From: a virus
Taxonomy: Duplodnaviria > Heunggongvirae > Uroviricota > Caudoviricetes
Length of the DNA stretch: 64,000 nt
Strand: one strand, 5' to 3'
Virus record (IMG/VR): IMGVR_UViG_3300042275_000481
Location: 38,172-102,171 of that record
The position numbers were made by a program, and so were the translations under genes. The notes beneath the pieces were generated by a model. That model did not search any database and was not told the DNA's origin. It saw only the letters and a program-made list of their open reading frames with translations. Below, one piece after another: positions 19,638 through 63,768 of the stretch. Every line of letters starts with the position of its first letter. The first letter of the stretch is position 1.

Positions 19638-20078
19638 TTAATTTCTTAACATTAATAGCACCTTCAATTCATCTGATTGGTTTTCTTCTTTAACCCACTG
19701 ATTAAGCCGTGGGCTTACGTTTGATATTTTTATTTTATCGATATTCTCTAAAAAGAATAATTCTGAGAATTTCTGAGTTGATTCGAATGTTCTCCAAAAC
19801 ATATAGATTTCATATTTTAAATCTTTGTCACCTACGATACTATTAAAGAGGTCCATTACTATATTTAATGAAAATGTATTCAAAACTTTATGTCTCATTA
19901 CAATGCATAATGCGTTCACTTTCATATAAGTTCCTCTTTGAGAATCAATTATTTTAGGTAAATATACTTTGTAGAAGCTATTTGGTAATGTATCATATCT
20001 TTCAAGCACATAACGATAACCTTTTGCTCGTATATCTTCTTTCAAATGCTTTCTTTTTGCTCTTTGATTTTTACTCAT
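19638..20078 (-). CDS. hypothetical protein
   Basis: 146-aa ORF with an RBS. Confidence 0.4.
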   Translation of the reverse strand: MSKNQRAKRKHLKEDIRAKGYRYVLERYDTLPNSFYKVYLPKIIDSQRGTYMKVNALCIVMRHKVLNTFSLNIVMDLFNSIVGDKDLKYEIYMFWRTFESTQKFSELFFLENIDKIKISNVSPRLNQWVKEENQSDELKVLLMLRN

Positions 20079-20748: not shown

Positions 20749-21765
20749 TTACTTAATACTCTTCTTAACTAAATATTCTGCAGTTCTAATAAGTTGTGCA
20801 GCATAACTCATTTCATTATCATACCAGGAAATGACCTTAACAAGCTGTTTCCCGTCTACTTCAATAAGTTGAGTTAATTGTCCGTCAACTAATGAACCGT
20901 AAGTCATACCGATTGTATCGCTTGAAACGATTGGGTCTTCTGTGTAACCAAGTGTTTCATTTGCAGCAGCTTTCATTGCGTCATTGATTTCTTGAACTGT
21001 AACATTTCTGCTAAGCTCAACTGTCAAGTCTACAACAGAACCTGTTGCTGTTGGTACACGTAAAGCAATACCATCCAATTTACCTTTTAGTTGAGGTAAT
21101 ACAAGTCCAACTGCTGATGCAGCGCCTGTAGATGTTGGAATAATATTTGATGCAGCTGTTCTGCCGCGTCTTGAATTTACACCTTTTGGATGTGGTCGAT
21201 CTAATGTCACTTGGTCATTTGTATAAGAGTGAACTGTTGTCACATAACCTTTAACAATACCAAATGAATCATCTAAAACTTTTGCAACTGGTGCTAAACA
21301 GTTTGTAGTACAAGATGCACCACTAATTACTGTTTCTGAACCATCAAGTGTTTCATGGTTTACACCAAATACGATCGTTTTTAAGTCACCTTTTGCTGGT
21401 GAATTGATAATAACTTTTTTGGCACCTGCTGTGATGTGCGCCATTGATTTTTCTTTTGACGCATAAAAGCCGGTACATTCTAAAACGACATCAACATTTA
21501 ATTCTCCCCAAGGAAGTTGTGATGCATCTTTTTCAGCATAGATTCTAATCTTTCTCCCGTCAACTACTAAGTAGTCTCCCTCAACGGAAATCTTATCCGA
21601 CATATAACGACCTTGTGTGGTGTCATATTTTAATAGGTGTGCTAATTCAGCAGGATTAGATAAATCGTTAATCGCTACCACTTCAAATGTTGGATTGTCA
21701 TGTACAAGTCTGTACGCTAATCTCCCGATACGACCGAAGCCGTTAATTGCAATTTTTGCAGCCAT
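20749..21765 (-). CDS. gap: type I glyceraldehyde-3-phosphate dehydrogenase
   Basis: N-terminal NGFGRIGR Rossmann motif. Active-site [10 protein letters not shown]. Full-length 338 aa with conserved WYDNE near the C-terminus. Confidence 0.9.
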
Positions 21766-26798: not shown

Positions 26799-27987
26799 CA
26801 TATGTTAGCTCATAGTTTCTTATGAGATCAGACTATATCTTCAACCCTAGAACTATCTAGGATTGCCTCGCACTTCGAACTATAAGTTCTACTCTACTCA
26901 CTTCTTTACTTAGATTATGTTCTAAGCTATGTTTTCGATAGTCGTTGCACGTTCAAATATATCATCTAGAATTTCATGTATCTGACTAATTTGATTATAT
27001 CTTATTCTTATTAAATTGATATTATTTTCTTTTGCTATTTCATTTTTTCTGAAGTCATTTTCTTTCAAAATTTTGAATGATTCTTCCCCACCCCAATTAT
27101 CTTGAGGTATAAAATGTTGTATTCCGTCAAACTCAACTATTAAATTTTTTTCTTTAATCCAAAAATCCAATCTTAAATTTCCAAATAATTTATGCGTTTT
27201 ATTATATTTATATTTAATATTTTTAGAATTCAAATAATCTATAATAATTCGTTCACCATTTGAAGCTTGACAAAATGGACATCTTTGACCTTGTTGAAAG
27301 TCATTAGGTCTCATAACAAAAGTATTTTTGCATTTTTTATGATAATGTTTTATTTTTGTATATGAATTAATATATTCCTCATTTACAGTATATTGATTAG
27401 AACCTAATTTCTTAACTAAATTTTTATACTGTTGATGTGTTTTTCTAATTCCGCCATTGCAAACCGGGCATCTTCTTCCAGCTGAGATGAATTTATTGGC
27501 TGTTGCATAGTAATCATTTCCACATTTTTTATGTGTAAATTTCAACTTACTGTGATTATTCTCATAATTACCTTCAACTATATACTCATCTTGTACTAGA
27601 TCATATATTTGTTTTTGTATATCTTCTAGTGTGAATGCATGAAATTTTTTTCTTTTTTCATTAGCACATAACGGACAACGTCTTCCTTGTTTGAATTTAT
27701 CAGGTGTTACTGAATAAATATTACCGCAAGCAAGATGTTCTACTTTTAATTTAGTTTTCGAAGTAGTATAAGTTTCTAACCATTTATACTCATTCGCATC
27801 ATCAAATTTTTTATTAATATCATTTAAGAATTTTTTATGTTTAGTCATTTTAATACAGTCCCTTCTATAATAATATATAAGCTTCGCTCAGGATTGTCTC
27901 CATCATTACATGGTAAGAGTTTCCCTGAATTCACGAGGTTGCTATAATATATTGTTATATTAAGGTGGCTATGCTTTTGGGGCGTTA
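26799..27987 (-). mobile_element. group I intron (RNR intron 1) carrying an intact homing endonuclease gene
   Basis: Exon 1 ends ...TFGG with U before the in-intron TAA. The intron ends in G just before tat-gca-agt (YASGAEP). R (26927-26940) and S (26830-26838) elements present. Confidence 0.6.
26922..27848 (-). CDS. intron-encoded homing endonuclease: four tandem zinc-ribbon (CxxC...CPxC) modules plus a C-terminal Vsr/DUF559-like PD-(D/E)xK nuclease domain
   Basis: Repeats of H..CGN.Y...P..F..G.RCP.C. C-terminal IVEFDGIQHF...D...K...INLIRIRY. The 3' end reads through the R element of the intron core. Confidence 0.6.
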   Translation of the reverse strand: MTKHKKFLNDINKKFDDANEYKWLETYTTSKTKLKVEHLACGNIYSVTPDKFKQGRRCPLCANEKRKKFHAFTLEDIQKQIYDLVQDEYIVEGNYENNHSKLKFTHKKCGNDYYATANKFISAGRRCPVCNGGIRKTHQQYKNLVKKLGSNQYTVNEEYINSYTKIKHYHKKCKNTFVMRPNDFQQGQRCPFCQASNGERIIIDYLNSKNIKYKYNKTHKLFGNLRLDFWIKEKNLIVEFDGIQHFIPQDNWGGEESFKILKENDFRKNEIAKENNINLIRIRYNQISQIHEILDDIFERATTIENIA

Positions 27988-28986: not shown

Positions 28987-29273
28987 GACCCATCATCCTT
29001 TCCCTCAATTTCACAAAAAACGGGATATAAGGCTAATATGCTTAAGTGTATAACAACCTTATTTCTTCTAGACATGAAGTATAATTTTTTAGTAAGAAAT
29101 TTTTATTGTTATTCATAAACATATCATCTTTTGTTTTTCAGAAATTGGACAGTAACCACTGTCAGAAGTATTTCTTAATTTATTGTTGTTAGGATTTTTC
29201 GTTTTTAAATTATATACTTTTTGTAAAAAATTTAATCAAAAAAAGAAGGATTCGAAAATCCTTCTTATATTAG

Positions 29274-30719
29274 TTATTCTACCCAGAATCTGGCAAATCC
29301 CTCAAGACCGCCAAGATCTAAATCAATATATACAGACTCATAGTTCTTAGTTTTGAGTTCTGCTTTAGCAATTTTAGGATTATTATTGAAGTCAATATGC
29401 TCAAAATATTTTTGAATTGCATCCAATGTTCTTACTGGAAGCTCATCTGAAAGTCGAACATAGAAGTCAAAGAATTCTTTGTCTTCATCTAAATCGCAAT
29501 GCATTTTGAATAGATTTGCTTCTTTACTGTTATTGCATTTGATTCTTCCAACTCTTATAAAGTCACTGTTAAAAACAGATGGAGTTGGTGAAGCAAAGAT
29601 TTCGCCAAAATCATGTGCTGATAGAAGCGGTTCTTTATCTTCATACAATAACAAATCCAAACTTCCTCTAACTCTGTCCACATCTAGTGGATGAGTAAGT
29701 TCTAGTGAAATATTGCCTTTGTCATCTTTTACTTCTCGATACATATCAGTATCAAGGACTTTGTTAATAGCGTCTCCACTTTCGATATTGAATGTATTTC
29801 CATATTCTGGAACTATGAAATCAAATACTTCTTCAGAGCTCTTAATCGCTGCAACAACGAAGTCTTCAATAGATTCGTCATTTGATTGAGCCAAGAATAG
29901 AATATATTTTTCATTATTGCCTATATATGTTAATGTATCCATAGTAGAAAATGCTGGTATCAAGTTGTAACCTTTGGTTGCAACAAAAGTTTGAAGATTG
30001 TATGGGCCTTCACCATAGATATCTTTGAATTCATCGTAAAGATGTTCACTAGGGATATAAACAATTGCGCCAAATGATTCGTTATCAGCAATGATATCAA
30101 AATCATAAGATGTCATTTGTTCTTCTCCATCATCAAAGAGTTCATCTTCTTCACCGCTAGCTATACCTAATAGTTTTTCCACATCCTCGTCAGATGCAGC
30201 TCCACCAGAAAGTAAGTTAATCAGTTTATTTACAAAATCTGTGGTTTCTTCCATTTCGTCATCAGGAATTCCTAAATCTTCTTGCATCTTCTCTAATAGT
30301 TCATCCATGTTACCAAAAGGGTTTTTACCAGCGTTAGGTGACATCTTTGACATATCAGGAGTATGATTACCTCCTAGAAATTTATCAAGAACCATTTTCA
30401 AACCAATGTTATCCAAAGAGAAGTGTTTTTCATTACCATTCCCAGAAGTCATCATATGTCCTGAGAGCTCTTCTAGAAAGTCAGGATCAGAATTGCTATT
30501 TAGCATTTGAGCGAATTTTTCCATTGCACTTTCTAATTCACTTTCTGTTACTCCAAACATTTCTGTTATTTCAGATGCAGCATCTCCAAAGGGTTTACCT
30601 CTGCCTGGATGATTATTTCTTTTAGGTTGAACATCTTCTTCGATGTCAATATTTTCTTCCATTCCAGAAATAGAGAAGTTTGTTTCTTTATCTTTGTCGT
30701 TATCATCAAAGAAATTCAT
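29274..30719 (-). CDS. large acidic hypothetical protein
   Basis: 481-aa D/E-rich ORF downstream of clpP on the same strand. It ends at a hairpin terminator (aaaaagaaggattcgaaaatccttctt, 29240-29270). Confidence 0.45.
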   Translation of the reverse strand: MNFFDDNDKDKETNFSISGMEENIDIEEDVQPKRNNHPGRGKPFGDAASEITEMFGVTESELESAMEKFAQMLNSNSDPDFLEELSGHMMTSGNGNEKHFSLDNIGLKMVLDKFLGGNHTPDMSKMSPNAGKNPFGNMDELLEKMQEDLGIPDDEMEETTDFVNKLINLLSGGAASDEDVEKLLGIASGEEDELFDDGEEQMTSYDFDIIADNESFGAIVYIPSEHLYDEFKDIYGEGPYNLQTFVATKGYNLIPAFSTMDTLTYIGNNEKYILFLAQSNDESIEDFVVAAIKSSEEVFDFIVPEYGNTFNIESGDAINKVLDTDMYREVKDDKGNISLELTHPLDVDRVRGSLDLLLYEDKEPLLSAHDFGEIFASPTPSVFNSDFIRVGRIKCNNSKEANLFKMHCDLDEDKEFFDFYVRLSDELPVRTLDAIQKYFEHIDFNNNPKIAKAELKTKNYESVYIDLDLGGLEGFARFWVE

Positions 30720-30772
30720 ATATTTTCCTCCTTTTGGAAAAGAGGGGGAAAGATTATTCCCCCAATTTTATT

Positions 30773-31369
30773 TTATTTATCAGATGGTTTCTTGATTTCG
30801 TCAATAATTCCATATTTTAATGCATCTTCTGCAAACATCCAACTGTCACGTTGTGTATCTTTTTTAAGTTGAGTAACTGTCTTGTTACATGATTTTGCAA
30901 TCATCTTAAGCAATTTCTCATTTAATTGTTTTGTAAAGTCAAGAGAAACTTCCATATCTTGGATATTTCCTTGAGTTCCACTAGATACTTGATGAAGCAT
31001 TACAGTTGCATTTGGTAGCGCAAAACGCTTGTCACCTTGAGACAGAATAGCTGCGCCCATAGATGCAGCAAGACCTTTAACACAAGTATAAACTGGTGCT
31101 TCAATATCTTTCATAACATCAATAATAGCCAATCCGTCAAGAACGGATCCTCCCGGACTGTTGATGTATAATTGAATAGGTTGTTTGCTAATTTTATTCA
31201 AATGTAACAATGTTTGTGTAATATAGCTAGCTTGTCTTTCATCAACAACACCTTCTAAATGGACAACACGGTCGTCAATTTGTGCACGTTGAATATCATA
31301 TTTAGGTTCTGAGTAATAAGTCCCTGAACTAGTCATAGGCTTATTAATATTTTTCGGATCAAAATTCAT
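30773..31369 (-). CDS. clpP: ClpP-family serine protease (S14; ClpP/NfeD-like)
   Basis: YINSPGGSV, Ser nucleophile in GLAASMGA, His in MLHQVSSG. 198 aa. Confidence 0.8.
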   Translation of the reverse strand: MNFDPKNINKPMTSSGTYYSEPKYDIQRAQIDDRVVHLEGVVDERQASYITQTLLHLNKISKQPIQLYINSPGGSVLDGLAIIDVMKDIEAPVYTCVKGLAASMGAAILSQGDKRFALPNATVMLHQVSSGTQGNIQDMEVSLDFTKQLNEKLLKMIAKSCNKTVTQLKKDTQRDSWMFAEDALKYGIIDEIKKPSDK

Positions 31370-31433
31370 ATTTTCCTCCTTGATTTTTAGAATTGAGGGG
31401 AAGATTTCTCTTCCCCAATTTAATATTTTTTAT

Positions 31434-32543
31434 TTATGGATTTATAATAATTCCGGATCCATCAGTAATAACTTGTGGCAACTCACCATTCCATGTATTT
31501 AAATACTCGATATATTGAATATAATCAAAGATTACCTTTAATTCTTCTGGAGTACTTCCTGAAGTATCAACTGTATATGTTGTAACCTCTGTAACTGGAT
31601 CTGTGGTCGATGTAACTGGCATACCTAATGTTCTGGCAACATCAACGACCTTAGCTGACAATGCAGCTGCTTCAGCCTGAGCGATTGCAAGAATAGCGTT
31701 TGCTTCACCTTTAGCTTCTTCTAGAGCCGATTCTGCTTCAAGAATAGTTGTTGCTAATTGTTGTTCAGCCTGAATGATGGCAATTTGTTTTTCAGTTTCA
31801 GCTTTTAATCTTTGTTGATCTGCAATCATCTTAGCTTCAACAGCTGCTTCAAAAGCATCTGAAAATGCAAAATCTGTAAGATAAATCGCAACAATTTCAA
31901 CAGGCATTCCTCTACCATTAATTTCCTCAACAATTAAGGTTTCTATAGAAACAGATAATGCGGATCTTTGTGAAATTAAATCCTCAGCGGTATATTGTGA
32001 TAAAGACGATTTAGTTCTTTCCATAACAAGCGAACCTAATCTATCTCTAACATTTTGAACATCTCCACCATATTTTTCATAGATTGTTTGAGCTTGTTCT
32101 CTCTTAATTCTCCACTGAACTGTAAGCATTGCGTCTACAGGCTGGGAATCGTTAGAATAGAATGATATTCCCATATCTTCAAGATTGTCATATCTGATTT
32201 CTTGAACTTTTAATGTATATTTGTGATATTTTTCTAATGGGCTTTTAACCTTTAAACCAGGTTCATATACAACTCCTTGAATATCTCCTAATTGAGTAAC
32301 AACCACTACTTCGGTTGCATCAATAGTTTGAAACATTCCAAATAATACAATTAATGCGCCAAGTGGAGCAAGTAACACAAGTTTACGGAATTTCCATCCG
32401 AACTTATATTGTTCTTCTGTATATTTTTCAACAGTTCCATCATATTTTACTTTTTGTTTCTCAACAATATATGAATGTTCTCCTAGGCCAAGACCAATGA
32501 ATAAACCAATAACTAAAATAAATGCAAAAATAATTAAAAACAT
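31434..32543 (-). CDS. SPFH/band-7 (stomatin/prohibitin/HflKC-like) membrane protein
   Basis: N-terminal TM helix. SPFH core domain. Long Ala/Glu/Gln coiled-coil (AEQQLATTILEAESALEEAKGEANAILAIAQAEAAAL). Confidence 0.75.
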   Translation of the reverse strand: MFLIIFAFILVIGLFIGLGLGEHSYIVEKQKVKYDGTVEKYTEEQYKFGWKFRKLVLLAPLGALIVLFGMFQTIDATEVVVVTQLGDIQGVVYEPGLKVKSPLEKYHKYTLKVQEIRYDNLEDMGISFYSNDSQPVDAMLTVQWRIKREQAQTIYEKYGGDVQNVRDRLGSLVMERTKSSLSQYTAEDLISQRSALSVSIETLIVEEINGRGMPVEIVAIYLTDFAFSDAFEAAVEAKMIADQQRLKAETEKQIAIIQAEQQLATTILEAESALEEAKGEANAILAIAQAEAAALSAKVVDVARTLGMPVTSTTDPVTEVTTYTVDTSGSTPEELKVIFDYIQYIEYLNTWNGELPQVITDGSGIIINP

Positions 32544-32612
32544 AATTTGTACCTCCCAATTTTCTTAAAATTTTTTACTCAAAGTTTAAAAGAAGGGAAT
32601 CCGAAGATTCCC

Positions 32613-33216
32613 TTATACTGATACTACTTCTTTTTCTTTTTGCTTGGACTCGATACGATCAATAGCCACAAGCATTTGTTTTCTTACAGCGCGCTTCAAT
32701 CCACGTGCACCATAAGTTTCGATATCAGCTGTCTTAATGATATCATCGATATCAGATTTAATGAATTTAACATCTTTTTCCATTTCCATGTACTCTTGAT
32801 ATTCTTTCTTGTATCTGTCGATTAGTGTTTCAGCGATATCTTTTTCAAGACCGTTGAACACAATGATTTCATCTAAACGGTTGATGAATTCTGGACGGAA
32901 ATGCTTTTCAACATTTTCTCTAATTTCGCTTGACTCAGTTTTATGAGTTACGAATCCAGAACTTCTAGGTTTAGCAAAGTCTTTACCATAACCTAAGTTC
33001 GTTGTGAAAATAATAATCGCATTTCTAAATGAAACACGATTTTTATGGTTATCAGTCATTTCACCTGTATCTAAGATATTCAATAATGTATCGAATACTT
33101 TTGGATGAGCTTTTTCAATTTCATCAAATAGAACGACTGAGTTTGGATACTGTTTGATTTTTGCAACTAAACCTGATTCATCATCATGGCCTATATCTTT
33201 TGTGTTACGATAGTTC
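32613..33216 (-). CDS. ClpC/ClpA-like double-AAA+ ATPase, exon 3 of 3
   Basis: GHDDESGLVAKIKQYPNSVVLFDEIEKAHPKVFDTLLNILDTGEMTD (D2 Walker B/sensor), RPEFINRLDEIIVF (sensor 2), GARGLKRAV. The 5' boundary is uncertain (33191-33216). Confidence 0.65.
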
Positions 33217-33491
33217 GCTAAACTATCTCTTTATATTTCTATAAAGAACTGACTATATCTTCACCCGATAAACGGGGTACTGCATTTCGAGTTCGCTTGA
33301 ACCCTACTCCCATAAGGGATAGTCGATGAACCTTCATCTCATTGAGATGTTTGGCTGCGGATTGCCCAATCTCTTGCCTTTTTACCATCTCTCCGACGTT
33401 ACTCTTCGATTAACAGGTAGCTAAGAGCTCTAAGGGGTTTCCCGCAATTAACAGTATTTTCTTTTGTATATCACTATACAATGGGGCGTAT
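33217..33491 (-). mobile_element. ORF-less group I intron (Clp intron B)
   Basis: R (revcomp of gggatagtcgatgaacc, 33316-33332) and S (33251-33259) elements. Conserved gcggattgcccaatct and gctctaaggggtttcccgcaatta blocks. Proposed 5' splice site after U of tgg-att. The 3' splice site is ambiguous: ..tagcg or ..gatata. Confidence 0.5.
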
Positions 33492-33628
33492 AATCCACCC
33501 AGGGGCACTACCAGTAATTTTTGTTACATCCATTTCAGTACCATATTCACCCATATTTAATTTGATTAAGTTTCGTTCAGCACCACAGAATTGCTTTGCA
33601 ACAATTTTACAAGTTTCGGTTTTACCGA
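33492..33628 (-). CDS. ClpC/ClpA-like ATPase, exon 2 of 3 (46-aa micro-exon)
   Basis: Encodes VGKTETCKIVAKQFCGAERNLIKLNMGEYGTEMDVTKITGSAPGWI. This is the remainder of the D2 Walker A (GPTG|VGKTE) through the ...G-A-P-P-G-Y-like motif. Confidence 0.6.
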
Positions 33629-33938
33629 CCGTTTATATTCCATCGAAATCGTTAATTTCAATGCGTTCTCTTATGAACTGCTTATACTTTCATATAAGAC
33701 TAGACTATATCATCACCTTTTTCAGGTGGTTTACATTTCGACTCACTTGAGTCTACTCCTTACGGATAGTCGTTGAACTTTTCTCTTATTAAGAGACTTA
33801 GCTGCTGATTGCCCAATCTACACACTTTTCAAGCCTTGGCTTTTCCTCACGGATCGCAGTGGCAGTGTAGCTCTAAGGGGTTTCCAGCAATTAGTAAACT
33901 TTGCTTATGTAAATTTCTTTACATAGGGGCTAAATTTA
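33629..33938 (-). mobile_element. ORF-less group I intron (Clp intron A)
   Basis: Exon 1 ends GPTG (ggt, U) followed immediately by TAA. The intron ends ..ataaacg (G) before gtcggtaaaacc. R (33754-33768) and S (33693-33701) elements, plus the gctgctgattgcccaatct and gctctaaggggtttccagcaatt blocks. Confidence 0.65.
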
Positions 33939-35408
33939 ACCCGTAGGACCTGCAAATACCATTGATGTCAATGGTTTCTCTGGATCGACTAATCCTCTTT
34001 CAATGTATCTTAGGTTCTCAATAACACGGTTCAATGGTCTTTCTTGACCTAATAGAACACGTTTCAACTCTTTTGCAGTTGCTTCTGTTTTGTTGTCAGC
34101 AATATTGATATCATATTTGACTTTAATCGCTGTGCGAACATCATCTGTGAAAACAATTTCACCGTCTTCATTGAAAACAGTTGAACTGGCAAATGCAAGT
34201 TCCAACATATTAATTGCTTTTGCTGGATTTGCTTGGTCAAGGGTGTATTTTTCAGAATAGTCTAAGACTTTTCTTACTAAATCGTCCTCAGCCTTCTTAC
34301 CAAAATATTCTTCGATATCAGGTTGTACACCTTTAAGAATTTGATAAGTTTGTTGTTTTGTAGGCTCACTAATGTTTACCTTATGGAAACGTCTTTCTAA
34401 TGCTTTGTCTTTGCTGATGTGTTTTTGATATTCATCATCAGTTGTAGTCCAAATCATTTGAATTTCACCACGAGTGATATATGGTTTAAGAATATTACCA
34501 CCACTTGCAGCTCCTTCTGCGTCTCCTAATTTCACCATCATATGTGCTTCATCAATGAACAGAATTACTTCTGGATTTTCTTTGACAAGTTTAATGATGT
34601 TCATAAGTTTTTCTTCAAAATCACCACGATATCTAGTTCCAGCAACTAATGCACCTGGATCTAATTGGTATACAATTTTGTTTCTGAACTTTTTAATAAC
34701 ATTTTTATTATTAATACGATTTACGAATTCATATACTGCAACAGTCTTACCTGTACCAGCAGGTCCAACGAGAATCGCATTTCTAATTGATTTTCCTGAC
34801 AAAGCCATTTGAATTTGATTAACAGCATTGTCTGCACCGATTACAACTGGTTTCGCTTGTTTCACATATCTGTTAAGATTTGTTAACTCACGGATTTTTT
34901 CCAATGCATCGATTTCTTGTTTAGTTGCAACAATATTAAATGCTTCAACAATTTTCTCAGACATTTGGTCAACTTTTTGAGTTGAACCGCCGAGAACAAA
35001 TTCAAGAATACTTCTAAGTTTATAACTTGGGTCTGAAAATAACACTTTAATAAGGTCTTCAACTTGCATTTGTCTGCGTTGTGCAAGAGCATCTCTTTTA
35101 AGTTGATTTCTTACAGCATTACCTTCTTCATGCCAAGTAACTTCAAAACGTTCTCCGCCTACATCCAATCCAGGATATAGTTCCAAGAATACCTTTTCAA
35201 AATCTTCTCCCTTAACTTCGTATTCTTGTAAGATATTCGTTAGAGTTTCATACGTCTCAGCAAATCTTTCAGTATCTTTATTCTTCTTCAAGAAGATTGT
35301 TGTACCTAAGAATAGATGAGGTGTACCAACCCAATTTTGATAGTTCTTAATTGCAATTTGTCCCGCTTTTTGCGAAATCATTTCGACTTCTTGTGATAGT
35401 GCCTTCAT
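33939..35408 (-). CDS. ClpC/ClpA-like ATPase, exon 1 of 3 (Clp-N repeat, D1 AAA+, start of D2)
   Basis: D1 Walker A GPAGTGKT. Walker B ILFIDEAH. ALERRF. Ends at ...MVFAGPTG (first half of the D2 P-loop). Confidence 0.75.
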
Positions 35409-35420
35409 TCTTTTCCTCCT

Positions 35421-35849
35421 TTAGAATCCAAAATCATCATCATCATCGTCTTCATGAGGATTGACTTGAACGGTATTTTGTTTGTTTTCATATTCTTTAA
35501 GATCTGTAAATGACATTTCCTTAACAGTTGCCATAATTTCATCGATTTTGTCGAGAATTTGTTCATCTGTAAGTGCTTCTGGTCTTTCACCAGTCATTTG
35601 TTCCATTATATCTGCAAAATCTGGATCTGATAAAGCTTCTAGATCCGTCATCGCACCAACATATCGTGATATTACCATAAAGTTAGCTCTGAAGTCAGCG
35701 CTTTCTTTATACTCAATATTTCTTTTTGCTTCTTTTACAGTAGCTTCTATTTTTTCAATAACTTCTAATTTTGCTTTCTCAACGGGTCCAAGACTCGCTT
35801 CTTCTTCTAGACCATCATCATCTAAGAAGAAATCATCAAAATCAGCCAT
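35421..35849 (-). CDS. acidic protein (poly-Asp C-terminus)
   Basis: 142-aa ORF ending HEDDDDDDFGF. Lies between the VWA gene and the Clp ATPase gene. Confidence 0.45.
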   Translation of the reverse strand: MADFDDFFLDDDGLEEEASLGPVEKAKLEVIEKIEATVKEAKRNIEYKESADFRANFMVISRYVGAMTDLEALSDPDFADIMEQMTGERPEALTDEQILDKIDEIMATVKEMSFTDLKEYENKQNTVQVNPHEDDDDDDFGF

Positions 35850-35907
35850 ATTAGTTCCTCCCTGTTTCTATAATTTTGTTGGGAACATAGAAAAATAAAG
35901 ACGGATC

Positions 35908-37383
35908 CTAGAAGAATCCGTCTTGTTGTTTTTTCATTTTAACCCAATCAGCGTCTTTTTTCAACGCTTTAACTTCACCATATGGTTCTTTCAGTGATAA
36001 ATGTTTTTCATCTGCAAGAACGATCCAAAGATTTCTTAGTGTTCTTGGTTTTGGAATTTCAGAATCACCAAAGCCATCAGTAAAGTATACCATTAGCGCA
36101 TTTTTATATGCACCAGTTTCATTGATATGATTGATTACAGGAATGAAAGAAGTTCCTCCACGACCTGTAACTTTTGTATTTACATCACGAGGATATTTTG
36201 CATCATAAATTCTTCCAATTTCAGCATCACATTCGATGATAGTAACTTTTGTATCATAATCTTTAACGATATTGAAAATTTCGTTGATTACATACTCAAT
36301 ATCACTATTTGACATAGAACCTGATGTGTCAATTGCAACAACAAGTTGTATATGTCTCTTTGGAAGTTTACCAGATAAGTCAGCACGATATGGTTGACGT
36401 CTGTTTAGACGTGTTTTAGTTCTTCTGTATGGAACAGGAACTGTACCCATATACTTTTTAAGAATCTGTTTCCAACTAATTTCTGGTTTTCTAAGAAGAT
36501 GTTTAATCTGTTCGATTACACCTGCAGGCATAAGTCCACGAGATTTTTCATCCATCTTATTATAAACATCTGCAATTAAACCTTTAACTCTGTCTTTCGC
36601 ATCTTCACTATCAACTTTTTCCCATTGATGTGGTGCTTGACCATTTTGATTATTTTGAGTTGCAGGTGCATTAGGATCTGGTTCACCTTCTCCTTGACCT
36701 TGTCCTGGCATAGCAAACTTGCTAGGTTTACTTTTCTTATTACTATCACCATCTTGTGGCTTAGGACCAAAGTTCTTCAAGAACTTATAATAATAGTCAA
36801 TCGAACTGTTTTCTTTCGGTGTTCTATTACTTTCTTGATTCATTTTTGCGGTTGTGTAAGCGTCAGGTGGAAGACGTAATGTCTTCGATCTGTCGTTTTT
36901 ATCTAATCTTATATCTTGTTGAACCATTGATGAAACAGATGCACTTGAAGCTTTTTCAAGGTTCACATGTTGTTCTGGATCATTTGCACCATTTAACTCA
37001 CCAAATACTGATGGATGATTATAAACTAATCTCAAAATCTCAGAAATAACCAATGCTGTAAATTCAGCATATGGATATTTAGCTAAGAATAATGGATTGA
37101 AATGCAATTCAAGTGGTTCTTTACTTACATCAATATCAAGTGGGCCTCGAATATTGAAGTTAACTTTTGTTGTCATGTTAACTAGAACTGAGCCCCAGAA
37201 AACATCGTGTGCCATGATTAAGTGAATTTTTTCAAATTCAATTACTTGCTCAAAAGCCTCTCTAAGAGGAGGGAGGATCTTTTCATCGACCTTCCCTTCA
37301 TTTATCAAAGCAGAAGCCTCAGCTTGATCTACAAGTTCACGGCAGATATTATATACTTCTAAAATATTAGTCTTTCCTGCCAT
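35908..37383 (-). CDS. von Willebrand factor A (VWA) domain protein, partner of the MoxR ATPase (DUF2201/ViaA/CoxE-like)
   Basis: MIDAS motif in VVAIDTSGSMSNSD. Further VWA elements (TDG..D). Long N-terminal region with a Gln/Pro/Gly-rich linker. Immediately downstream of, and tightly spaced (10 bp) with, the MoxR gene. Confidence 0.7.
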   Translation of the reverse strand: MAGKTNILEVYNICRELVDQAEASALINEGKVDEKILPPLREAFEQVIEFEKIHLIMAHDVFWGSVLVNMTTKVNFNIRGPLDIDVSKEPLELHFNPLFLAKYPYAEFTALVISEILRLVYNHPSVFGELNGANDPEQHVNLEKASSASVSSMVQQDIRLDKNDRSKTLRLPPDAYTTAKMNQESNRTPKENSSIDYYYKFLKNFGPKPQDGDSNKKSKPSKFAMPGQGQGEGEPDPNAPATQNNQNGQAPHQWEKVDSEDAKDRVKGLIADVYNKMDEKSRGLMPAGVIEQIKHLLRKPEISWKQILKKYMGTVPVPYRRTKTRLNRRQPYRADLSGKLPKRHIQLVVAIDTSGSMSNSDIEYVINEIFNIVKDYDTKVTIIECDAEIGRIYDAKYPRDVNTKVTGRGGTSFIPVINHINETGAYKNALMVYFTDGFGDSEIPKPRTLRNLWIVLADEKHLSLKEPYGEVKALKKDADWVKMKKQQDGFF

Positions 37384-37393
37384 AATGGCCTCC

Positions 37394-38851
37394 TTATTCT
37401 TCTTTCATTAAGTTTTTAAGCGTACTGTCGAATTCAGAAAGTTGCAATAAGACCTCACGTGCAAAGCATTTAGAAATCTTAGAGAATACATTCTTTCCAT
37501 CTTTTGCAATAACTTTCTCTACATTTGAAAGACCTTTTGCGAAGGTGATTCTTGTAGAATCGTCAAGCATTTGAACGAATTCTGTGATTTGATCCTTATA
37601 GTTATTGTATTCTTTTGCAATCTTCAAATCAGATGATTTTTTCTTATTTTCAAAGTCAACAATTGTTTCAGCGATGTAGTAAATAACTGTGTCAGCAGTA
37701 ATCTTTCTACGAAGTGCACCTTGTTTGTTGAATTTAACTTTAAGTTCATTACTGATTGTTGCGGTTTTACCATTGATAAGTTCTTCTGGTTTAATAAGTG
37801 TGCTTGTATCTTTTAAGTTACGGATAAATGCACGACCTGCTGTTTGACCAACTTTACCAATGATCATTCTTTGCATATCGCCATCTTCGTCTGATCTATC
37901 TTGACGACTTAGAAGAGGGGTTTTAGCAAATACTTGGAAACTTTCATAAATATATGCAACAATTTCCCAAGAACGTGGTGATGGATGTTGCTCATCAGTA
38001 TCCTTATGAGAGTTGTCTTTTGTCATAAATTGACTTTCATCAACAGCAATTGCGTTGATAACGTCTGTATTAATTCCTTTATCAAGAGCATAATCTACCC
38101 AGTCGCTTAACTTAGCATCAACAACGATTTTAAGGAAGCGGTCTTTTTGAGCGTCATCCATTTCGTTAGTTGCATAAGTTGAGTTTTGAGATGATGGATT
38201 GACTGCGCCTACAATCGTAACCCACCAAGGTAAGTCATAACCATTGATATTTTTGTTAAGAACGATGTTCATTAATTCTTTCATTGTTTGTGGTTCTGTA
38301 CGGTTAAGCTCATCAATAAATAGTAAGAAAGGTTTAATTTCTCCACTTTCGATTAATGCAATTTTAAGTTCTGCTGGTAATTCTTCACCGAATTTAAATT
38401 CGTTGATTTCTCCATCAACAAGACGTTCCATTTGAGAACGTGTTGCTAATACTTTTGCTTTCTTAGTTTTAGGGTCTGTATAAACCATACCTTCATCAGT
38501 AAGTTTAAGAGCTCCACCTAAGAAACCTTCTTCTTTTGCAATTCTGTAATATTCTTTTTCAAGTTTCATAATATTACTTGTTACATAATAAGGAACGAAA
38601 CGAACTTCTGTTCCTCCATCTTTAGTTGGGCTTGCAAATGGTAAACCAGTTACTTCCCCTTCTTTTAGAGATCCACCTTCAACTACGTTACTGAACCCTC
38701 CAAGTTCTTTTGCAGCTTGGTGAATAATTTCTGTTTTACCGATACCATGAGGACCTGATAAAAGCATTGTAATACCTTTACCTCTTGGTGTAATAAGATT
38801 TGCTAAATATGCGCGCTTAACTAAGCGCTTTGACACTTCAATTGTTGCCAT
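37394..38851 (-). CDS. MoxR-family AAA+ ATPase (AAA_5)
   Basis: Walker A LSGPHGIGKTE. Walker B LLFIDELNR. Sensor-1/Arg-finger region TIVGAVNPSSQNSTYATNEMDDAQKDRF matches the MoxR ..ATQNP...LP.A.LDRF signature. Confidence 0.75.
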   Translation of the reverse strand: MATIEVSKRLVKRAYLANLITPRGKGITMLLSGPHGIGKTEIIHQAAKELGGFSNVVEGGSLKEGEVTGLPFASPTKDGGTEVRFVPYYVTSNIMKLEKEYYRIAKEEGFLGGALKLTDEGMVYTDPKTKKAKVLATRSQMERLVDGEINEFKFGEELPAELKIALIESGEIKPFLLFIDELNRTEPQTMKELMNIVLNKNINGYDLPWWVTIVGAVNPSSQNSTYATNEMDDAQKDRFLKIVVDAKLSDWVDYALDKGINTDVINAIAVDESQFMTKDNSHKDTDEQHPSPRSWEIVAYIYESFQVFAKTPLLSRQDRSDEDGDMQRMIIGKVGQTAGRAFIRNLKDTSTLIKPEELINGKTATISNELKVKFNKQGALRRKITADTVIYYIAETIVDFENKKKSSDLKIAKEYNNYKDQITEFVQMLDDSTRITFAKGLSNVEKVIAKDGKNVFSKISKCFAREVLLQLSEFDSTLKNLMKEE

Positions 38852-38948
38852 AATTTTGTTTCCTCCCTGTTATTTGTTTTGTCGAGTTATAATTTTCCAG
38901 TAACTCGCATTTATAATATATAGTTTAAAACTTATTTAAAAATACAAC

Positions 38949-39599
38949 TTAGTTTTCACTAAGTTGTATGTTTTCATAATCTAGCTCCTCATGGAAGATA
39001 ACTTTCTTCGATTGAGGTTGTTGATTTTTTATCATTTCAATTATTTCTAAGAATTTGTCAAAATTATTATCGTACATTTTAAGATAATTAAAGTTTGACT
39101 TCTTAACTGCTTCATCTTGTGCTCGTTCATCATCAATATCTCTTAGTCTGTAATGTGTATTGTCAGATGCTTTAATGTTCACGATAAGATTAAGGCTTGT
39201 AATATAAAAATCTGGAATGTGAAATCTTTGATTACCTTCTGCATCTATATACGGAAAAGTCATTGGAGCTGGCCCCATAACATCACCTGGGTTGTCCCAA
39301 TCAAGATAAACATCGAGATATTCTAAAAATTTTCTTTCATAACTTCCAGTATATGGAGTTGTAGTTCCATCTTCCCATTTGTATTCTCCAGATATGCTTC
39401 TATTTGAAAGCATTTTCTTTTGTTGTTCTGGTTCATCAAGTAAATGGACTTTTCCATATTTTTGTTTCATTCTTCTCTTAAACATTTCACGATATGCTTC
39501 TCTTGCTCGTTCATCAGCAAAGCGTTCATATCGGCCAGTTGTAACGTTAAACTTAGTTGGCTTGCCAGTCATAACACACTTTCCATGCTCTTTTGTCAA
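38949..39599 (-). CDS. hypothetical protein (TTG start), separated by a single in-frame TGA from the upstream zinc-finger ORF
   Basis: 216-aa ORF. The same frame as 39615-39746 continues through one TGA (...IVFN*RNKYALTKEHGKC...). Confidence 0.4.
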   Translation of the reverse strand: MTKEHGKCVMTGKPTKFNVTTGRYERFADERAREAYREMFKRRMKQKYGKVHLLDEPEQQKKMLSNRSISGEYKWEDGTTTPYTGSYERKFLEYLDVYLDWDNPGDVMGPAPMTFPYIDAEGNQRFHIPDFYITSLNLIVNIKASDNTHYRLRDIDDERAQDEAVKKSNFNYLKMYDNNFDKFLEIIEMIKNQQPQSKKVIFHEELDYENIQLSEN

Positions 39600-60407: not shown

Positions 60408-61496
60408 TTATAGTTCTATAATATTTTCTAAAATTTGTTCAATCTTATTAAAATTCCAATAGGGTATCCTAATAAGTTTTATACCTTTTTGCTTACAATA
60501 TTCATCTTTTAAATGGTCATTGTATTTTTGTTCAGACAACTTATCTAAACCGAAAATAGGTTCATAATGAAATTCACCATCATATTCTATTAAGGTATTA
60601 CTATCAGATAGAAAAAAGTCAAATCTTAGTGGATTGATAAATTTCAAATCTTCAAACGAAAACTCTCTTTCAAACTGTATCTTTCTATTTTCTAGCCATT
60701 CTGATATTTTATTTTCACCCTTTGATGACTTACAAATAGGGCACCTATCACCAGATAGGAATCTTGTTGGACTAACGTCATATATATTACCACACTTATT
60801 ATGTTTTATTCCTATTTTTGTATGTGTGTTTGTATAATCTTCTAAAACACTATATTCGTCGCCTATTAGATTAAAAACTTCTTCCTTAAATTCTTTGGTG
60901 GATTTCTTAAATTTTCCATTACAAATAGGACACCTATCACCAGATAGGAATCTTGTTGGACTTACTTTATATTCACTATCACACACAAGATGACGCATTT
61001 TTATCTTTGAGTCGCAATTAACATAATCACTTAAAACACTATATTCGTCACCTACTAGATTAAAAACTTCTGCTTTAAAGTCCTCGGTAGATTTTTTTAT
61101 CAGTCCTGCACATTTTGGACAACCATGTCCTTTTAAGATATTTACAGGTGTTGGTTCATATTCAAAACCACATTTTTTGTGCCTCATAAGTATAGGAGTT
61201 TTGTTATTTTTATAATCACCCAATACTTCATATTCAGGTCCTAATATATCCATAACATCGTCTTTAAAGGTATCAATAGTTTTTCTTAGACCGTTTCCAA
61301 CTTTTATAATAGCACATTTTGGACAACCATGTCCCCGATTTATCATTCGGCTAGGATGTGCTTCAAATATATTTCCACACTTCTTGTGCTTCATGGTTAT
61401 TTTTGTATTGGTGTTTGTATACTCTCCTAAAACTTCATACTCATCACCAAATTTTACTTCAACTTCTTTAATAAATGATTCAGTAGTTCTTTTCAT
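60408..61496 (-). CDS. free-standing homing endonuclease (zinc-ribbon repeats + Vsr/DUF559-like nuclease)
   Basis: Five tandem H.KCG..(Y/F)...P...L.G.GCP.C modules. C-terminal IEYDGEFHYEP...D..K..YC...GIKLIRIPYWN. Confidence 0.6.
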   Translation of the reverse strand: MKRTTESFIKEVEVKFGDEYEVLGEYTNTNTKITMKHKKCGNIFEAHPSRMINRGHGCPKCAIIKVGNGLRKTIDTFKDDVMDILGPEYEVLGDYKNNKTPILMRHKKCGFEYEPTPVNILKGHGCPKCAGLIKKSTEDFKAEVFNLVGDEYSVLSDYVNCDSKIKMRHLVCDSEYKVSPTRFLSGDRCPICNGKFKKSTKEFKEEVFNLIGDEYSVLEDYTNTHTKIGIKHNKCGNIYDVSPTRFLSGDRCPICKSSKGENKISEWLENRKIQFEREFSFEDLKFINPLRFDFFLSDSNTLIEYDGEFHYEPIFGLDKLSEQKYNDHLKDEYCKQKGIKLIRIPYWNFNKIEQILENIIEL

Positions 61497-61558: not shown

Positions 61559-62218
61559 TTACAGTTCAATTATGTTACTCTTATATTTTGTTTGGTCGAT
61601 GTCCTCAATATAGACACCCAAGCTTTCTAAAAGAATATATCCATTTTGCATATTTTTACTTACCATTGTTCGGTAGTCAATAAGTGGTCGTAGATATTCA
61701 GGAATTCTTTCCACACCTTTTGGAACAGCAACAACGCTCATTCCAAATCGTGAAATATCAATTTCAGGTTCATCTACGTTTCGATTAAATACTGTGCGAC
61801 TAATTGCGCCATATTTTTTCGGATAAGTATCTTTTAGTTTCTCTAATTCTGGATGATTTTCATCTACTGTTTTTAACTTAAGTAGATTTACTTTTTCTGG
61901 TGGAACTATTTGATTTTCAGGTTCTAGCGCATTCCATATAATTGCTCCTCTAACCTGTTCAAGCGTAGATGGATCTTTATATTGCTCAAATTGCTCTATA
62001 CTCTTTGGAAGTGAATATAATAATTCTCCGCCTCTTAGTGATTCTTCAATTTCTAAACCTAATTCATCAAATTTATTAATAATAGTTCTAATATTAATAT
62101 CTTCCGCTGACAGAATATCTTCCTGTAAAATTGTCGTAAATTGTTCACGTAATTTCTTAGGAACGTTTGTTTTCCTTATGGCTAACATATATCTTCCATT
62201 GAGTTCGTTAACTCTCAA
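61559..62218 (-). CDS. 3'-terminal exon of an intron-interrupted gene of unknown product
   Basis: The ORF begins with TTG inside conserved intron-3' sequence (..cataagagaacg|cattgagag..). The true acceptor is probably ~62180-62200. Confidence 0.45.
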   Translation of the reverse strand: MRVNELNGRYMLAIRKTNVPKKLREQFTTILQEDILSAEDINIRTIINKFDELGLEIEESLRGGELLYSLPKSIEQFEQYKDPSTLEQVRGAIIWNALEPENQIVPPEKVNLLKLKTVDENHPELEKLKDTYPKKYGAISRTVFNRNVDEPEIDISRFGMSVVAVPKGVERIPEYLRPLIDYRTMVSKNMQNGYILLESLGVYIEDIDQTKYKSNIIEL

Positions 62219-62455
62219 TGCGTTCTCTTATGAACTGCTCATACTTTCATATGAGATGAGACTATATCTTCATCTTTCGATGTTTCCTGTTTCGGACCAC
62301 TTGGTCCTACTCCTTACGGATAGTCGTTGAACCTTCATCTCATTGAGATGTTTGGCTGCGGATTGCCCAATCTACACACTTTTCAAGCCTTGGCTTTTCC
62401 TCACGGATCGCAGTGGCAGTGTAGCTCTAAGGGGTTTCCCGCAATTAAGGAAATT
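62219..62455 (-). mobile_element. ORF-less group I intron (unknown-gene intron 2); boundaries approximate
   Basis: R (62318-62333) and S (62249-62257) elements, plus the gctgcggattgcccaatct and gctctaaggggtttcccgcaatt blocks. Nearly identical to Clp intron A. Confidence 0.55.
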
Positions 62456-62461
62456 TTATAA

Positions 62462-62550
62462 GAGCATAACTGTTTACCCTTAATATCAAGAACTGGTTTG
62501 TCTAATAGACGCCCAAGTTCACCTGTAATTAAACCGGCATACATAATTTT
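62462..62550 (-). CDS. internal micro-exon of the unknown intron-interrupted gene (approx. boundaries)
   Basis: Only one frame is open between the two introns: KIMYAGLITGELGRLLDKPVLDIKGKQ... It begins right after an intron-terminal G (..gagtttaattg|aaaatt). Confidence 0.4.
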
Positions 62551-63768
62551 CAATTAAACTCGCTAAGTTTAATTCGCTTTCGCTGCTCATATTTTCATAT
62601 GAGATAAGACTATATCTTCAGATATTTATTGAACGTAAATATCTGTCTTCCTTTTCCAATAGGCTTCTATTGTACTCGCATTGCGATAGTCGTTGAACTT
62701 TTTTCTTAAAATTAATTCTTCAAGTATATTTTCAAGTTGTTTATAATTTTTATATGATAATCTTAATAGTGTATACTTAGATAATTGTATAATATTATTT
62801 TTTCTATTGTCTCGTTCTCTAATAACATCAATAGATTCAAATAATGATTTTTCTTTAAAATGTTGTATTCCATCATATTCAATTATTAGATTTAAAGAGT
62901 CAATAATAATATCTACTCTTAAATCCGTATTGAATAATTTAGAATCAAATTCAAATAAAATATTATTTTTTTCTAAGAACTGAATTATTTTTCTTTCACC
63001 TTTAGAAACTTTCTTAGAACAAATAGGACATCTACTAGCAACAGATTTTGATATGAAATTGTTCGCTTTTACGTCCCATTCATGACCACATTTATTATGT
63101 CTTAGTTTAATTTTTGTTCTAGTGTTTGTATATGGTGATATTAATGAATACTCATCCCCAACAGTTTCCTCTAGTTTTCTTTTAAACATTTCTTCAGTCC
63201 AAGTTCCTTTCCCAGAACAATACGGACAAGAATTTTTTTGATTCAAAAGATTATTTGCTCTCATTTTGAATTCATGACCACATTTATTATGCTTAAAAAT
63301 TGATGATTTATTTGCATAACCTGAATAATCTAATACTGAATACTCATTATCTAATTCTATTTCTAGTCTTTTTATAAGATTTTTTTCAGTTAATCTTATA
63401 GAACCTGAACATTTAGGACACCTTCTTCCATTATTAAACGTATTAGGTGCTACTAAATACTCATGGCCACATTTATTATGTCTTATTAAGATTTTAGTTT
63501 TTGAATTTATATAATCATTCCCAAGAACTGTATATTCCATTCCAACTTGATTTTTTACTTTGTGTTTAAAACTTTCTAGTGTATCTTTTTTCATAATATC
63601 ACTCCTTAATAATTTGTTCAATGAGTGACAACATGAAATAAAAAGTTCTTAATTTTAAGAAACTTAGCTGCTGATTGCCCAATCTTTCAGATTTTCAAAC
63701 ATTCACGCTCACTTTTGCAAGTCACGTTGTAGTTCTGAAAGCTCTAAGGGGTTTCCAGCAATTAAAAA
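62551..63768 (-). mobile_element. group I intron (unknown-gene intron 1) carrying an intact homing endonuclease gene; 5' boundary approximate
   Basis: R (62674-62689, inside the 3' end of the HE ORF) and S (62618-62626). 5' blocks gctgctgattgcccaatct (63661-63679) and gctctaaggggtttccagcaatt (63742-63764). Confidence 0.55.
62626..63621 (-). CDS. intron-encoded homing endonuclease (zinc-ribbon repeats + Vsr/DUF559-like nuclease)
   Basis: Four H.KCGHE(Y/F/W)...N....RCP.CSG modules. IIEYDGIQHF...D..R..K......LLRLSY. Confidence 0.6.
   Translation of the reverse strand: MNKLLRSDIMKKDTLESFKHKVKNQVGMEYTVLGNDYINSKTKILIRHNKCGHEYLVAPNTFNNGRRCPKCSGSIRLTEKNLIKRLEIELDNEYSVLDYSGYANKSSIFKHNKCGHEFKMRANNLLNQKNSCPYCSGKGTWTEEMFKRKLEETVGDEYSLISPYTNTRTKIKLRHNKCGHEWDVKANNFISKSVASRCPICSKKVSKGERKIIQFLEKNNILFEFDSKLFNTDLRVDIIIDSLNLIIEYDGIQHFKEKSLFESIDVIRERDNRKNNIIQLSKYTLLRLSYKNYKQLENILEELILRKKFNDYRNASTIEAYWKRKTDIYVQ

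Follow-up and report, generated by a model that had tools for sequence, protein, structure and literature searches.

A 64,000-nucleotide (nt) stretch of viral DNA (the window; positions 38,172 to 102,171 of IMG/VR record IMGVR_UViG_3300042275_000481) carries a block of genes for a ClpA-like unfoldase, the serine protease ClpP and two acidic proteins, preceded by genes for a MoxR-like AAA+ ATPase and its VWA partner. The reading favored here, at a probability of roughly 0.55, is that the block specifies an early-expressed, phage-autonomous ClpAP protease with adaptor-like partners, next to a chaperone pair that is distinct from it. The genes are identified with near certainty and the modular architecture is likely. 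An adaptor role of the accessory proteins and a function in host takeover are plausible proposals. The co-inherited unit is composed of the ClpA-like protein, ClpP and the two new accessory proteins, and it lies next to an older MoxR/VWA pair.

From gene identities, intron positions and splice junctions, motif conservation and synteny, we infer how the complex might form, when it might be expressed, what its substrates might be and which proteins could act as adaptors. The first of four modules would be the MoxR-like AAA+ ATPase and the DUF2201 VWA protein, a chaperone-like pair in which the VWA protein is without the zinc-peptidase motif and keeps its metal ion-dependent adhesion site (MIDAS). 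In the second, splicing of two group I introns would yield a double-ring unfoldase of ClpA architecture, which would dock on ClpP by a hydrophobic-Gly-hydrophobic loop. The third would consist of two lineage-specific accessory proteins that bracket the Clp genes and dock on the unfoldase or ClpP, and the fourth of optional inserts, SPFH in this phage and glyceraldehyde-3-phosphate dehydrogenase (GAPDH) in some relatives. Expressed early, the block would provide host-independent ATP-dependent proteolysis that remodels host or early phage proteins.

The spliced unfoldase, ClpP and the two accessory proteins

An earlier note on this DNA, made from the sequence alone, described a cluster of seven genes that included a ClpC-like unfoldase encoded by one open reading frame (ORF) at 32613-35408. 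The other six ORFs are exactly as described, and the unfoldase gene is instead composed of three exons (Table 1). The ORF that begins at 35408 stops at 33936, within the Walker A motif of the second AAA+ module, D2 (GPTG/VGKT, the slash marking the break), and coding resumes in two further pieces. The interruptions are two group I introns that had been overlooked. Their matches to Rfam RF00028, for which the gathering score is 50 bits, span 33681-33948 (98.5 bits) and 33229-33506 (85.4 bits), and both are predicted to be self-splicing. At the junctions GGT/TAA...ACG/GTC and GGGT/GGA...AAG/ATA, U precedes the 5' splice site and the intron ends in G, and the reading frame is restored precisely. 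The predicted spliced product, from exons 35408..33939, 33629..33497 and 33196..32613, is 728 amino acids (aa) long. It is 69% identical to an uninterrupted 740-aa homolog in a related viral contig and aligns without gaps over both junctions. The split is not an assembly artifact, because independent metagenome contigs carry it too. Automatic annotation would fragment this gene at the two introns, and the gene model is corrected here.

The spliced protein is assigned a ClpA architecture. Its Pfam domains are AAA, AAA_lid_9 and AAA_2, and its best model is TIGR02639 (ClpA; E = 1.6e-128), which aligns in one stretch (residues 5-710; model positions 2-712 of 734). With ClpB and ClpC, models and structures alike align as two separate segments, and the linker between the first module, D1, and D2 is ~30 residues long. 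Because the unfoldase has no M-domain, it is classed as ClpA-like rather than ClpC-like; the two AAA+ modules of the earlier description stand and the ClpC type does not. Both Walker A/B pairs and the pore loops are kept in the spliced protein (GPAGTGKT, ILFIDEAH and YRG in D1; GPTGVGKT, VVLFDEIE and GYIG in D2). Over the N-terminus, only the ClpA equivalog model aligns.

ClpP matches Pfam CLP_protease with E = 8e-51 (172.9 bits; cut-off 20.2). Ser103 (AASMG), His126 (MLHQ) and Asp175 (QRDSW) align with ClpP structures 6cfd and 29hb, and the protease appears to be catalytically intact. The ClpP assignment made earlier is confirmed by the Pfam match and the aligned triad, and the motifs, the triad and both Walker A/B pairs support a complete unfoldase and ClpP pair.

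The two accessory proteins are acidic, and family searches gave no match for either one (142 aa and 481 aa). The gene for the smaller protein is always immediately upstream of the ClpA-like gene. In E. coli, clpS lies upstream of clpA, and the acidic-protein gene occupies the position that clpS has relative to clpA in that organism. Proteins of this family are ~140 aa long, and the tail ends in GF in 13/13 members, as [F/L/Y/P]GF. A strict LGF terminus was considered and then softened; very distant members end in FGW, CLW or DEDF. A fold search with the model of the 142-aa protein returned only generic helical-bundle matches (BAR domains and designed proteins).

The larger protein, p481, belongs to a family of 400-660 aa. 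A word-based search of 5.8 billion proteins gave ten clusters, and a profile search of 1.84 billion representatives found 77. The N-terminal motif F-x-hydrophobic-x-G-hydrophobic-P-E-N is present in 48 of 69 members, compared to 16 of 536 control windows. The C-terminal alpha/beta domain is modeled at a predicted local distance difference test score (pLDDT) of 80-93, and a fold search with this model gave no match to known folds. Both accessory proteins may dock on the unfoldase or ClpP as putative adaptors, regulators or dedicated substrates. A PADLOC scan of eight proteins returned nothing relevant.

Gene order, expression signals and competing explanations

The lineages compared (L numbers) include p481 members at profile E-values of 1e-8 to 1e-30, and one contig of the clade is at least 127 kb long. 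Close relatives (73% MoxR identity) have all seven genes in the same order and no introns. Other relatives have lost SPFH, retain a remnant of it or have GAPDH inserted; the seven-gene order described earlier is kept in part of the clade. Down to barely detectable similarity, the conserved core is composed of the MoxR-like, DUF2201-VWA, 140-aa acidic, ClpA-like, ClpP and 400-660-aa proteins. ClpP is directly upstream of the p481 homolog in 8/9 relative lineages, and in L101 two small genes lie between them. The ClpA-like gene is upstream of ClpP in every contig long enough to include the site (that of L014 stops short of it), and further along the longer contigs the 140-aa acidic protein, VWA, MoxR-like and DUF7487 genes follow. 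Cooperation between the ClpA-like protein and ClpP is proposed because this strict adjacency in the clade is hard to explain otherwise. At 78 other viral loci with a ClpA/B-like gene, ClpP, p481 and the acidic protein are all missing within 10 kb.

Only one early-type promoter motif was found for the block, upstream of the MoxR-like gene. The early-promoter consensus of phage AR9 is AAATATATATTAT-N6-G (PMC5312081). The early-promoter-like sequence AA[AC]TATATATTAT, with at most one mismatch, occurs nine times in the window, always on the minus strand, compared to 2.0 expected. In L002 and L012, an extended form, TATATTATAAAnnnGAGT, is conserved upstream of MoxR, and in L014 it is found directly upstream of ClpP. 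Moreover, the annotation of AR9 gp028 includes an early promoter of this type. By analogy with AR9, the block may be expressed early from a promoter of the virion-RNA-polymerase type. The AR9 late-promoter motif AACA-N6-TA is present upstream of the acidic-protein gene in the window but is not conserved in L002, so it was not used. A sigma-70 promoter scan was uninformative (43 sites, 43.3 expected).

The nine early-promoter-like motifs are at positions 1876, 19309, 20156, 21814, 25818, 27944, 38913, 51108 and 55178 (minus strand). Five of them are 45-96 nt upstream of start codons, which belong to the ORF at 19638-20078, GAPDH, the endonuclease in the ribonucleotide reductase intron, MoxR and an RNA polymerase subunit.

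Terminator-like hairpins are also enriched in the window (27 found, 4.4 expected), and they part the block into MoxR-VWA, acidic-ClpA, SPFH, ClpP and p481 units. A hairpin and the promoter motif stand between the DUF7487 gene and the block. The tight spacing reported earlier holds for MoxR-VWA (10 nt) and acidic-ClpA (12 nt) only; the remaining gaps measure 53-69 nt, and every one of them contains a hairpin and then a T-run. The genes are co-directional as described, all on the minus strand, which is uninformative because nearly every ORF of the window shares that strand.

These observations bear on the proposal of the earlier note that the seven components make up one dedicated machine. In a narrowed form of this view, the MoxR-like, VWA, acidic, ClpA-like, ClpP and p481 proteins, with or without SPFH, would be one remodeling and degradation system in which, for example, MoxR-VWA assembles or loads the Clp complex or passes substrates to it. 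Such integration is doubtful. L101 does retain the six-gene order though its p481 homolog is found at a profile E of 2e-10 and its downstream ribonucleotide reductase is of another class. The block also has its single early-type promoter motif upstream of MoxR, and a second MoxR/VWA-type pair stands right after p481 in L014 and L098. However, the DUF7487, RNase H and ribonucleotide reductase genes that flank the block are as syntenic as the block itself, so the order may reflect clade-wide collinearity. In AR9 (gp028/gp029) and likewise in PBS1, the MoxR-like/VWA pair occurs without Clp genes, and in the window the sub-units are parted by hairpins with T-runs. With GAPDH inserted inside the block in relatives and SPFH dispensable, a single seven-component machine is not supported. 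The MoxR/VWA genes are an old, reusable phage pair that is separable from the Clp genes.

The opposite possibility, that the components are uncoupled, is unlikely. Here the ClpA-like protein would act alone as an unfoldase or disaggregase, and ClpP would mix with host ClpP, be served by host ClpX, ClpC or ClpE, or poison host Clp complexes. The phage ClpP is ~40% identical to Firmicutes ClpP end to end, and many phages have ClpA/B-like genes without ClpP. Where ClpA has its IGL loop, the aligned tripeptide is SGF in the window and IGF, VGF, MGF, LGI, AGL or QGV in relatives. The tripeptide is degenerate in the window and in L002 (QGV), but IGF, VGF, MGF or LGI is kept by most family members, and the strict ClpA-ClpP adjacency in the clade also argues against uncoupling.

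A role in virion maturation, with ClpP as the prohead protease and p481 as a scaffold or processed head protein, is very improbable. In its favor, head maturation protease is the label of the best PHROG matches of ClpP (phrog_94, E = 2.7e-47) and of ClpP homologs in some cultured jumbo phages, and the acidic p481 is disordered over a long N-terminal half. Against it, ClpP is nearer to cellular ClpP (171.7 bits) than to the ClpP-related head-maturation model NF045542 (105.6 bits, cut-off 120), a dedicated unfoldase is encoded beside it, the neighbors of the block are nucleotide-metabolism and replication genes with no adjacent portal or capsid gene, the early-type promoter motif is directly upstream of ClpP in L014, and the labels in cultured phages are automatic annotations of a ClpP that stands alone among ligase and deaminase genes, as in PBECO4 and XaC1. 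A routine prohead-protease and scaffold module, which the earlier note had set against its own proposal, does not describe the block.

Several points weigh against an early, phage-autonomous ClpAP protease with adaptor-like partners. Both ClpP and the unfoldase score below every curated NCBIfam cut-off (for two ClpP models, 171.7 bits against 249 and 147.8 bits against 308.6), and Pfam Clp_N gave no match in the unfoldase N-domain at E <= 0.01. The loops SGF in the window and QGV in L002, its closest relative, are non-canonical compared to [LIV]-G-[FL], and docking on ClpP is not assured. For the accessory proteins, which are putative docking partners, the models gave no informative fold match. 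The promoter call leans on the analogy with AR9, whose RNA polymerase is 33% identical. The MoxR-VWA genes beside the Clp genes in the deep lineage L101 could mean a functional link and not mere synteny, and a virion-assembly role for MoxR-vWA was favored by Iyer et al. (PMC7824862).

A more specific proposal is that the terminal hydrophobic-Gly-hydrophobic peptides by the acidic tails dock in the hydrophobic pockets of ClpP or on the unfoldase N-domain and gate or retarget the phage ClpAP, together with MoxR-VWA, against host proteins such as defense factors. This is put forward tentatively and is doubtful. If true, docking by terminal peptides would be a new mode of Clp protease regulation.

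Neighboring proteins, introns and the phage genome

The profile searches recovered the MoxR, VWA, ClpP and SPFH assignments of the earlier note, MoxR-like only at the borderline. In the MoxR-like protein, AAA_3 scores 28.1 bits (cut-off 27) and AAA_5 22.3 bits (cut-off 22), and both matches span residues 167-240 only. Among eight homologs, AAA_5 matches six and AAA_3 five. The protein has a clear phage-family match (phrog_1297, E = 3e-45). Searched as a single sequence, it had no match below E = 0.03 among PDB sequences. With a profile of the eight homologs, McrB was the best solved structure (E = 1.2e-4) and the rest were generic P-loop proteins, and no MoxR-class chain (RavA, NorQ or CbbQ type) was among the best 60 of 77 PDB profile matches at E <= 0.01.

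The VWA partner, encoded directly downstream as proposed earlier, is well supported by Pfam DUF2201 (E = 2.5e-15, 57.1 bits; cut-off 26.4) and is matched over its whole length by phrog_1314. The MIDAS motif DTSGS is kept in 4/4 aligned homologs. The HExxH of the N-terminal zincin (DUF2201_N domain) is replaced by SEILR in the window; the window, L002 and L012 read SEI[LF]RLVYxH where AR9 gp029 has HELLHVANSH. Because of this replacement, the zinc site is considered lost in this lineage. Jumbo-phage MoxR-vWA pairs have been described with an N-terminal metallopeptidase (Iyer et al. 2021, PMC7824862). The second pair in L014 (3396-6749) and L098 (7227-10580) is composed of an AAA_5 protein (487 aa) and a CobT_C protein (612 aa).

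The SPFH protein is confirmed by its Band_7 match (E = 1.8e-26, 93.7 bits). It has hydrophobic segments at residues 1-27 and 52-82, and its membrane topology is ambiguous by hydrophobicity and charge. The gene is present in the window, L002, L012 and L095, is absent from L013 and L099-L102, and is a 70-aa remnant of the C-terminus in L097, L098 and L014. A pairing in the style of SPFH-NfeD, to which the earlier note had pointed, did not hold: ClpP is a soluble 198-aa protein that aligns with canonical ClpP end to end, and its NfeD1b_N score of 25 bits falls short of the cut-off, 40. The idea that SPFH generally partners ClpP-fold proteases in phages was also considered and rejected; the SPFH genes of three cultured phages are without a protease neighbor.

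GAPDH is ~8 kb from the block in the window. It is inside the block in L012, L095, L097 and L098 (between ClpA and SPFH or ClpP) and directly upstream of ClpP in L014. The phage GAPDH at 20749-21765 (minus strand) matches Gp_dh_N and Gp_dh_C (E = 4e-59) and has an early-promoter-like motif 49 nt upstream.

A conserved 65-71-aa ORF (MTFxEAYKxMxxGKKIKRPxFKGYWF...DWEIV) lies between the ClpA-like gene and ClpP in deep relatives (L099 697-894, L100 2610-2825, L102 2390-2590); it may resemble DUF2829-type small phage proteins. A 216-aa DUF7487 protein (38949-39599, minus strand) adjoins MoxR upstream in every relative with enough contig, including the deep lineage L101. In L012 (14253-15149), genes for a thioredoxin and a ribosome hibernation factor (Ribosomal_S30AE) follow closely downstream of that for the ribonucleotide reductase.

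Other genes of the window specify polymerases (a split subunit of a multisubunit RNA polymerase and a divergent family-B DNA polymerase), a helicase, a RecJ-like nuclease, several homing endonucleases and a class II ribonucleotide reductase. PBS1 and AR9 are the closest cultured relatives (33% identity in the RNA polymerase subunit). Because of the split RNA polymerase subunit, the family-B DNA polymerase, the homing endonucleases and the proximity to PBS1/AR9, the placement of the block in a phage genome stands, and the evidence supports an uncultivated, distant AR9/PBS1-like jumbo phage as the source.

The more distant L095 has a homologous intron at the identical intron 1 site, with a 317-aa homing-endonuclease ORF. 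Rfam gave no intron match over eight related loci; the L095 intron was missed by the model and recognized by reading the sequence. Rfam detects three intron copies in the window, which are paralogs. The third (62238-62540, minus strand, 91.7 bits) is just upstream of the C-terminal exon of the family-B DNA polymerase and is nearly identical in large parts to ClpA intron 1. Its flanking ORFs encode a CapR/DUF559-type endonuclease and an HNH endonuclease (ORFs at this intron: 61559-62218, 62626-63621 and 60408-61496, minus strand). A fourth group I intron, undetected by Rfam (26799-27987, minus strand, 1189 nt), splits the gene for the class II ribonucleotide reductase, with KTFGG on one side and YASGAEP on the other. 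Within this intron are a 308-aa CapR/DUF4379/DUF559 endonuclease ORF (26922-27848), an early-promoter-like motif at 27944-27956 and a P7-like GATATAGTC at 26839.

When the DNA of the block was searched at near identity against 50,697 phage records, no match fell outside the two ClpA introns. Within intron 2, 33229-33335 is 84% identical over 107 nt to crAss-like phage cr118_1, and within intron 1, 33681-33713 is identical over 33 nt to several Staphylococcus epidermidis phages. Because the only DNA-level phage matches of the block fall inside the introns, intron exchange between unrelated phages is suggested.

Table 1. Coordinates of the genes, exons, introns and candidate expression signals of the block
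Feature	Coordinates	Strand	Description
Hairpin between DUF7487 gene and block	38942..38969	-	12-bp hairpin + T-run
AR9-type early-promoter-like motif	38913..38925	-	AACTATATATTAT, then six bases, then G; 62 nt upstream of MoxR-like start
MoxR-like AAA+ ATPase	37394..38851	-	485 aa; Walker A GPHGIGKT and Walker B LLFIDE, ~128 residues apart
DUF2201 VWA partner	35908..37383	-	491 aa; MIDAS DTSGS at residue 352 intact
Hairpin at end of VWA gene	35898..35924	-	12-bp hairpin + T-run
Acidic accessory protein	35421..35849	-	142 aa; isoelectric point 4.05; tail ends DDDDDDFGF-COOH; predicted four-helix bundle
ClpA-like exon 1	33939..35408	-	N-domain, D1, D2 Walker A to GPTG
Group I intron 1	33630..33938	-	309 nt, without ORF, at GPTG/VGKT (P-loop); Rfam RF00028, 98.5 bits
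ClpA-like exon 2	33497..33629	-	133 nt; VGKTE to G of GYIG pore loop
Group I intron 2	33197..33496	-	300 nt, without ORF, inside Tyr codon of D2 pore loop GYIG; Rfam RF00028, 85.4 bits
ClpA-like exon 3	32613..33196	-	rest of D2, Walker B VVLFDEIE, SGF loop, small D2 domain
Hairpin downstream of ClpA-like gene	32595..32612	-	hairpin GGGAATCTTCGGATTCCC + T-run; read from sequence
SPFH/Band 7 membrane protein	31434..32543	-	369 aa; two N-terminal hydrophobic segments; optional in block
Hairpin between SPFH and ClpP genes	31397..31416	-	8-bp GC-rich hairpin
ClpP serine protease	30773..31369	-	198 aa; Ser103/His126/Asp175
Hairpin between ClpP and p481 genes	30744..30763	-	7-bp GC-rich hairpin
Accessory protein p481	29274..30719	-	481 aa; isoelectric point 4.22; N-terminal FSISGMEEN, acidic disordered linker, C-terminal alpha/beta domain
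Hairpin at block end	29243..29266	-	10-bp hairpin + seven-T run

Comparison with known systems

ClpP (proposed to act against host proteins), ClpA, ClpX and ClpS have been described in jumbo phages (Iyer et al. 2021, PMC7824862), and the Atu_ph07 genome has seven dispersed Clp genes (PMC6102473). In the literature searched, no paper was found on ClpA-ClpP adjacency, the accessory families or introns in the unfoldase gene. The earlier statement that the block corresponds to no named phage module is therefore too broad for its parts, since ClpP, ClpA and MoxR-vWA were already known. The new elements are the introns, the obligate adjacency of ClpA and ClpP, and two accessory families whose terminal peptides are conserved. 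Phage Clp components have been catalogued before, none with a defined role or partner. Here, an adjacent unfoldase and ClpP are accompanied by two unannotated families in which the only conserved short peptides are terminal, by acidic tails. This arrangement could reveal how an ATP-dependent protease is operated by a virus itself, and it may point to a new form of ClpP regulation. In addition, the comparison tells the old, reusable modules (MoxR/VWA and SPFH) apart from the true co-inherited core.

Like the prokaryotic SPFH-NfeD and HflK/C-FtsH systems, the window encodes a membrane-anchored SPFH protein beside a ClpP-fold protease. Unlike in SPFH-NfeD, the protease here is a canonical, soluble ClpP that lacks the membrane and OB-fold domains of NfeD, and SPFH is dispensable in relatives. 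AR9 and PBS1 gp028-gp029 share with the window an adjacent AAA+ ATPase and DUF2201 VWA protein, a conserved MIDAS and an early-type promoter upstream. AR9 gp029 keeps HELLH...H where the window lineage has SEILR, and AR9 is without Clp genes downstream.

Group I introns of phages are known in T4 td and nrdB, SPO1, the Twort DNA polymerase and other genes. To our knowledge, a Clp/Hsp100 ATPase gene has no earlier description as an intron host. The introns of the window are like those of other phages in their RF00028 match, their insertion at the most conserved codons, their paralogous copies within one genome, and the versions with and without a homing endonuclease at one site. They are unlike them in that the host gene encodes a Clp/Hsp100 ATPase and that two are in one gene, at the P-loop and the pore loop. 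AR9 g189 also holds an intron (PMC5312081).

The Clp genes of other jumbo phages (Atu_ph07, RaK2-like phages and Asteriusvirus) encode a ClpP that is ~42% identical and ClpA-like proteins that are 32-35% identical to those of the window. These genes are dispersed and without homologs of p481 or the acidic protein, and ClpP is alone in PBECO4 and XaC1.

Another close parallel is bacterial ClpAP/ClpS. The window shares with it an unfoldase of N-domain, D1 and D2 without an M-domain, both Walker A/B pairs, the YRG and GYIG loops, a loop at the ClpA IGL position, the Ser-His-Asp triad of ClpP and a small gene directly upstream of the unfoldase. Unlike in E. coli, the unfoldase and ClpP are phage-encoded and adjacent, and they score below all curated ClpA/ClpP cut-offs. 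The small upstream protein is without similarity to ClpS and is predicted to be an acidic helical bundle with a C-terminal GF. Moreover, unlike ClpAP/ClpS, the phage system has an obligate 400-660-aa partner after ClpP and, in the window, two group I introns.

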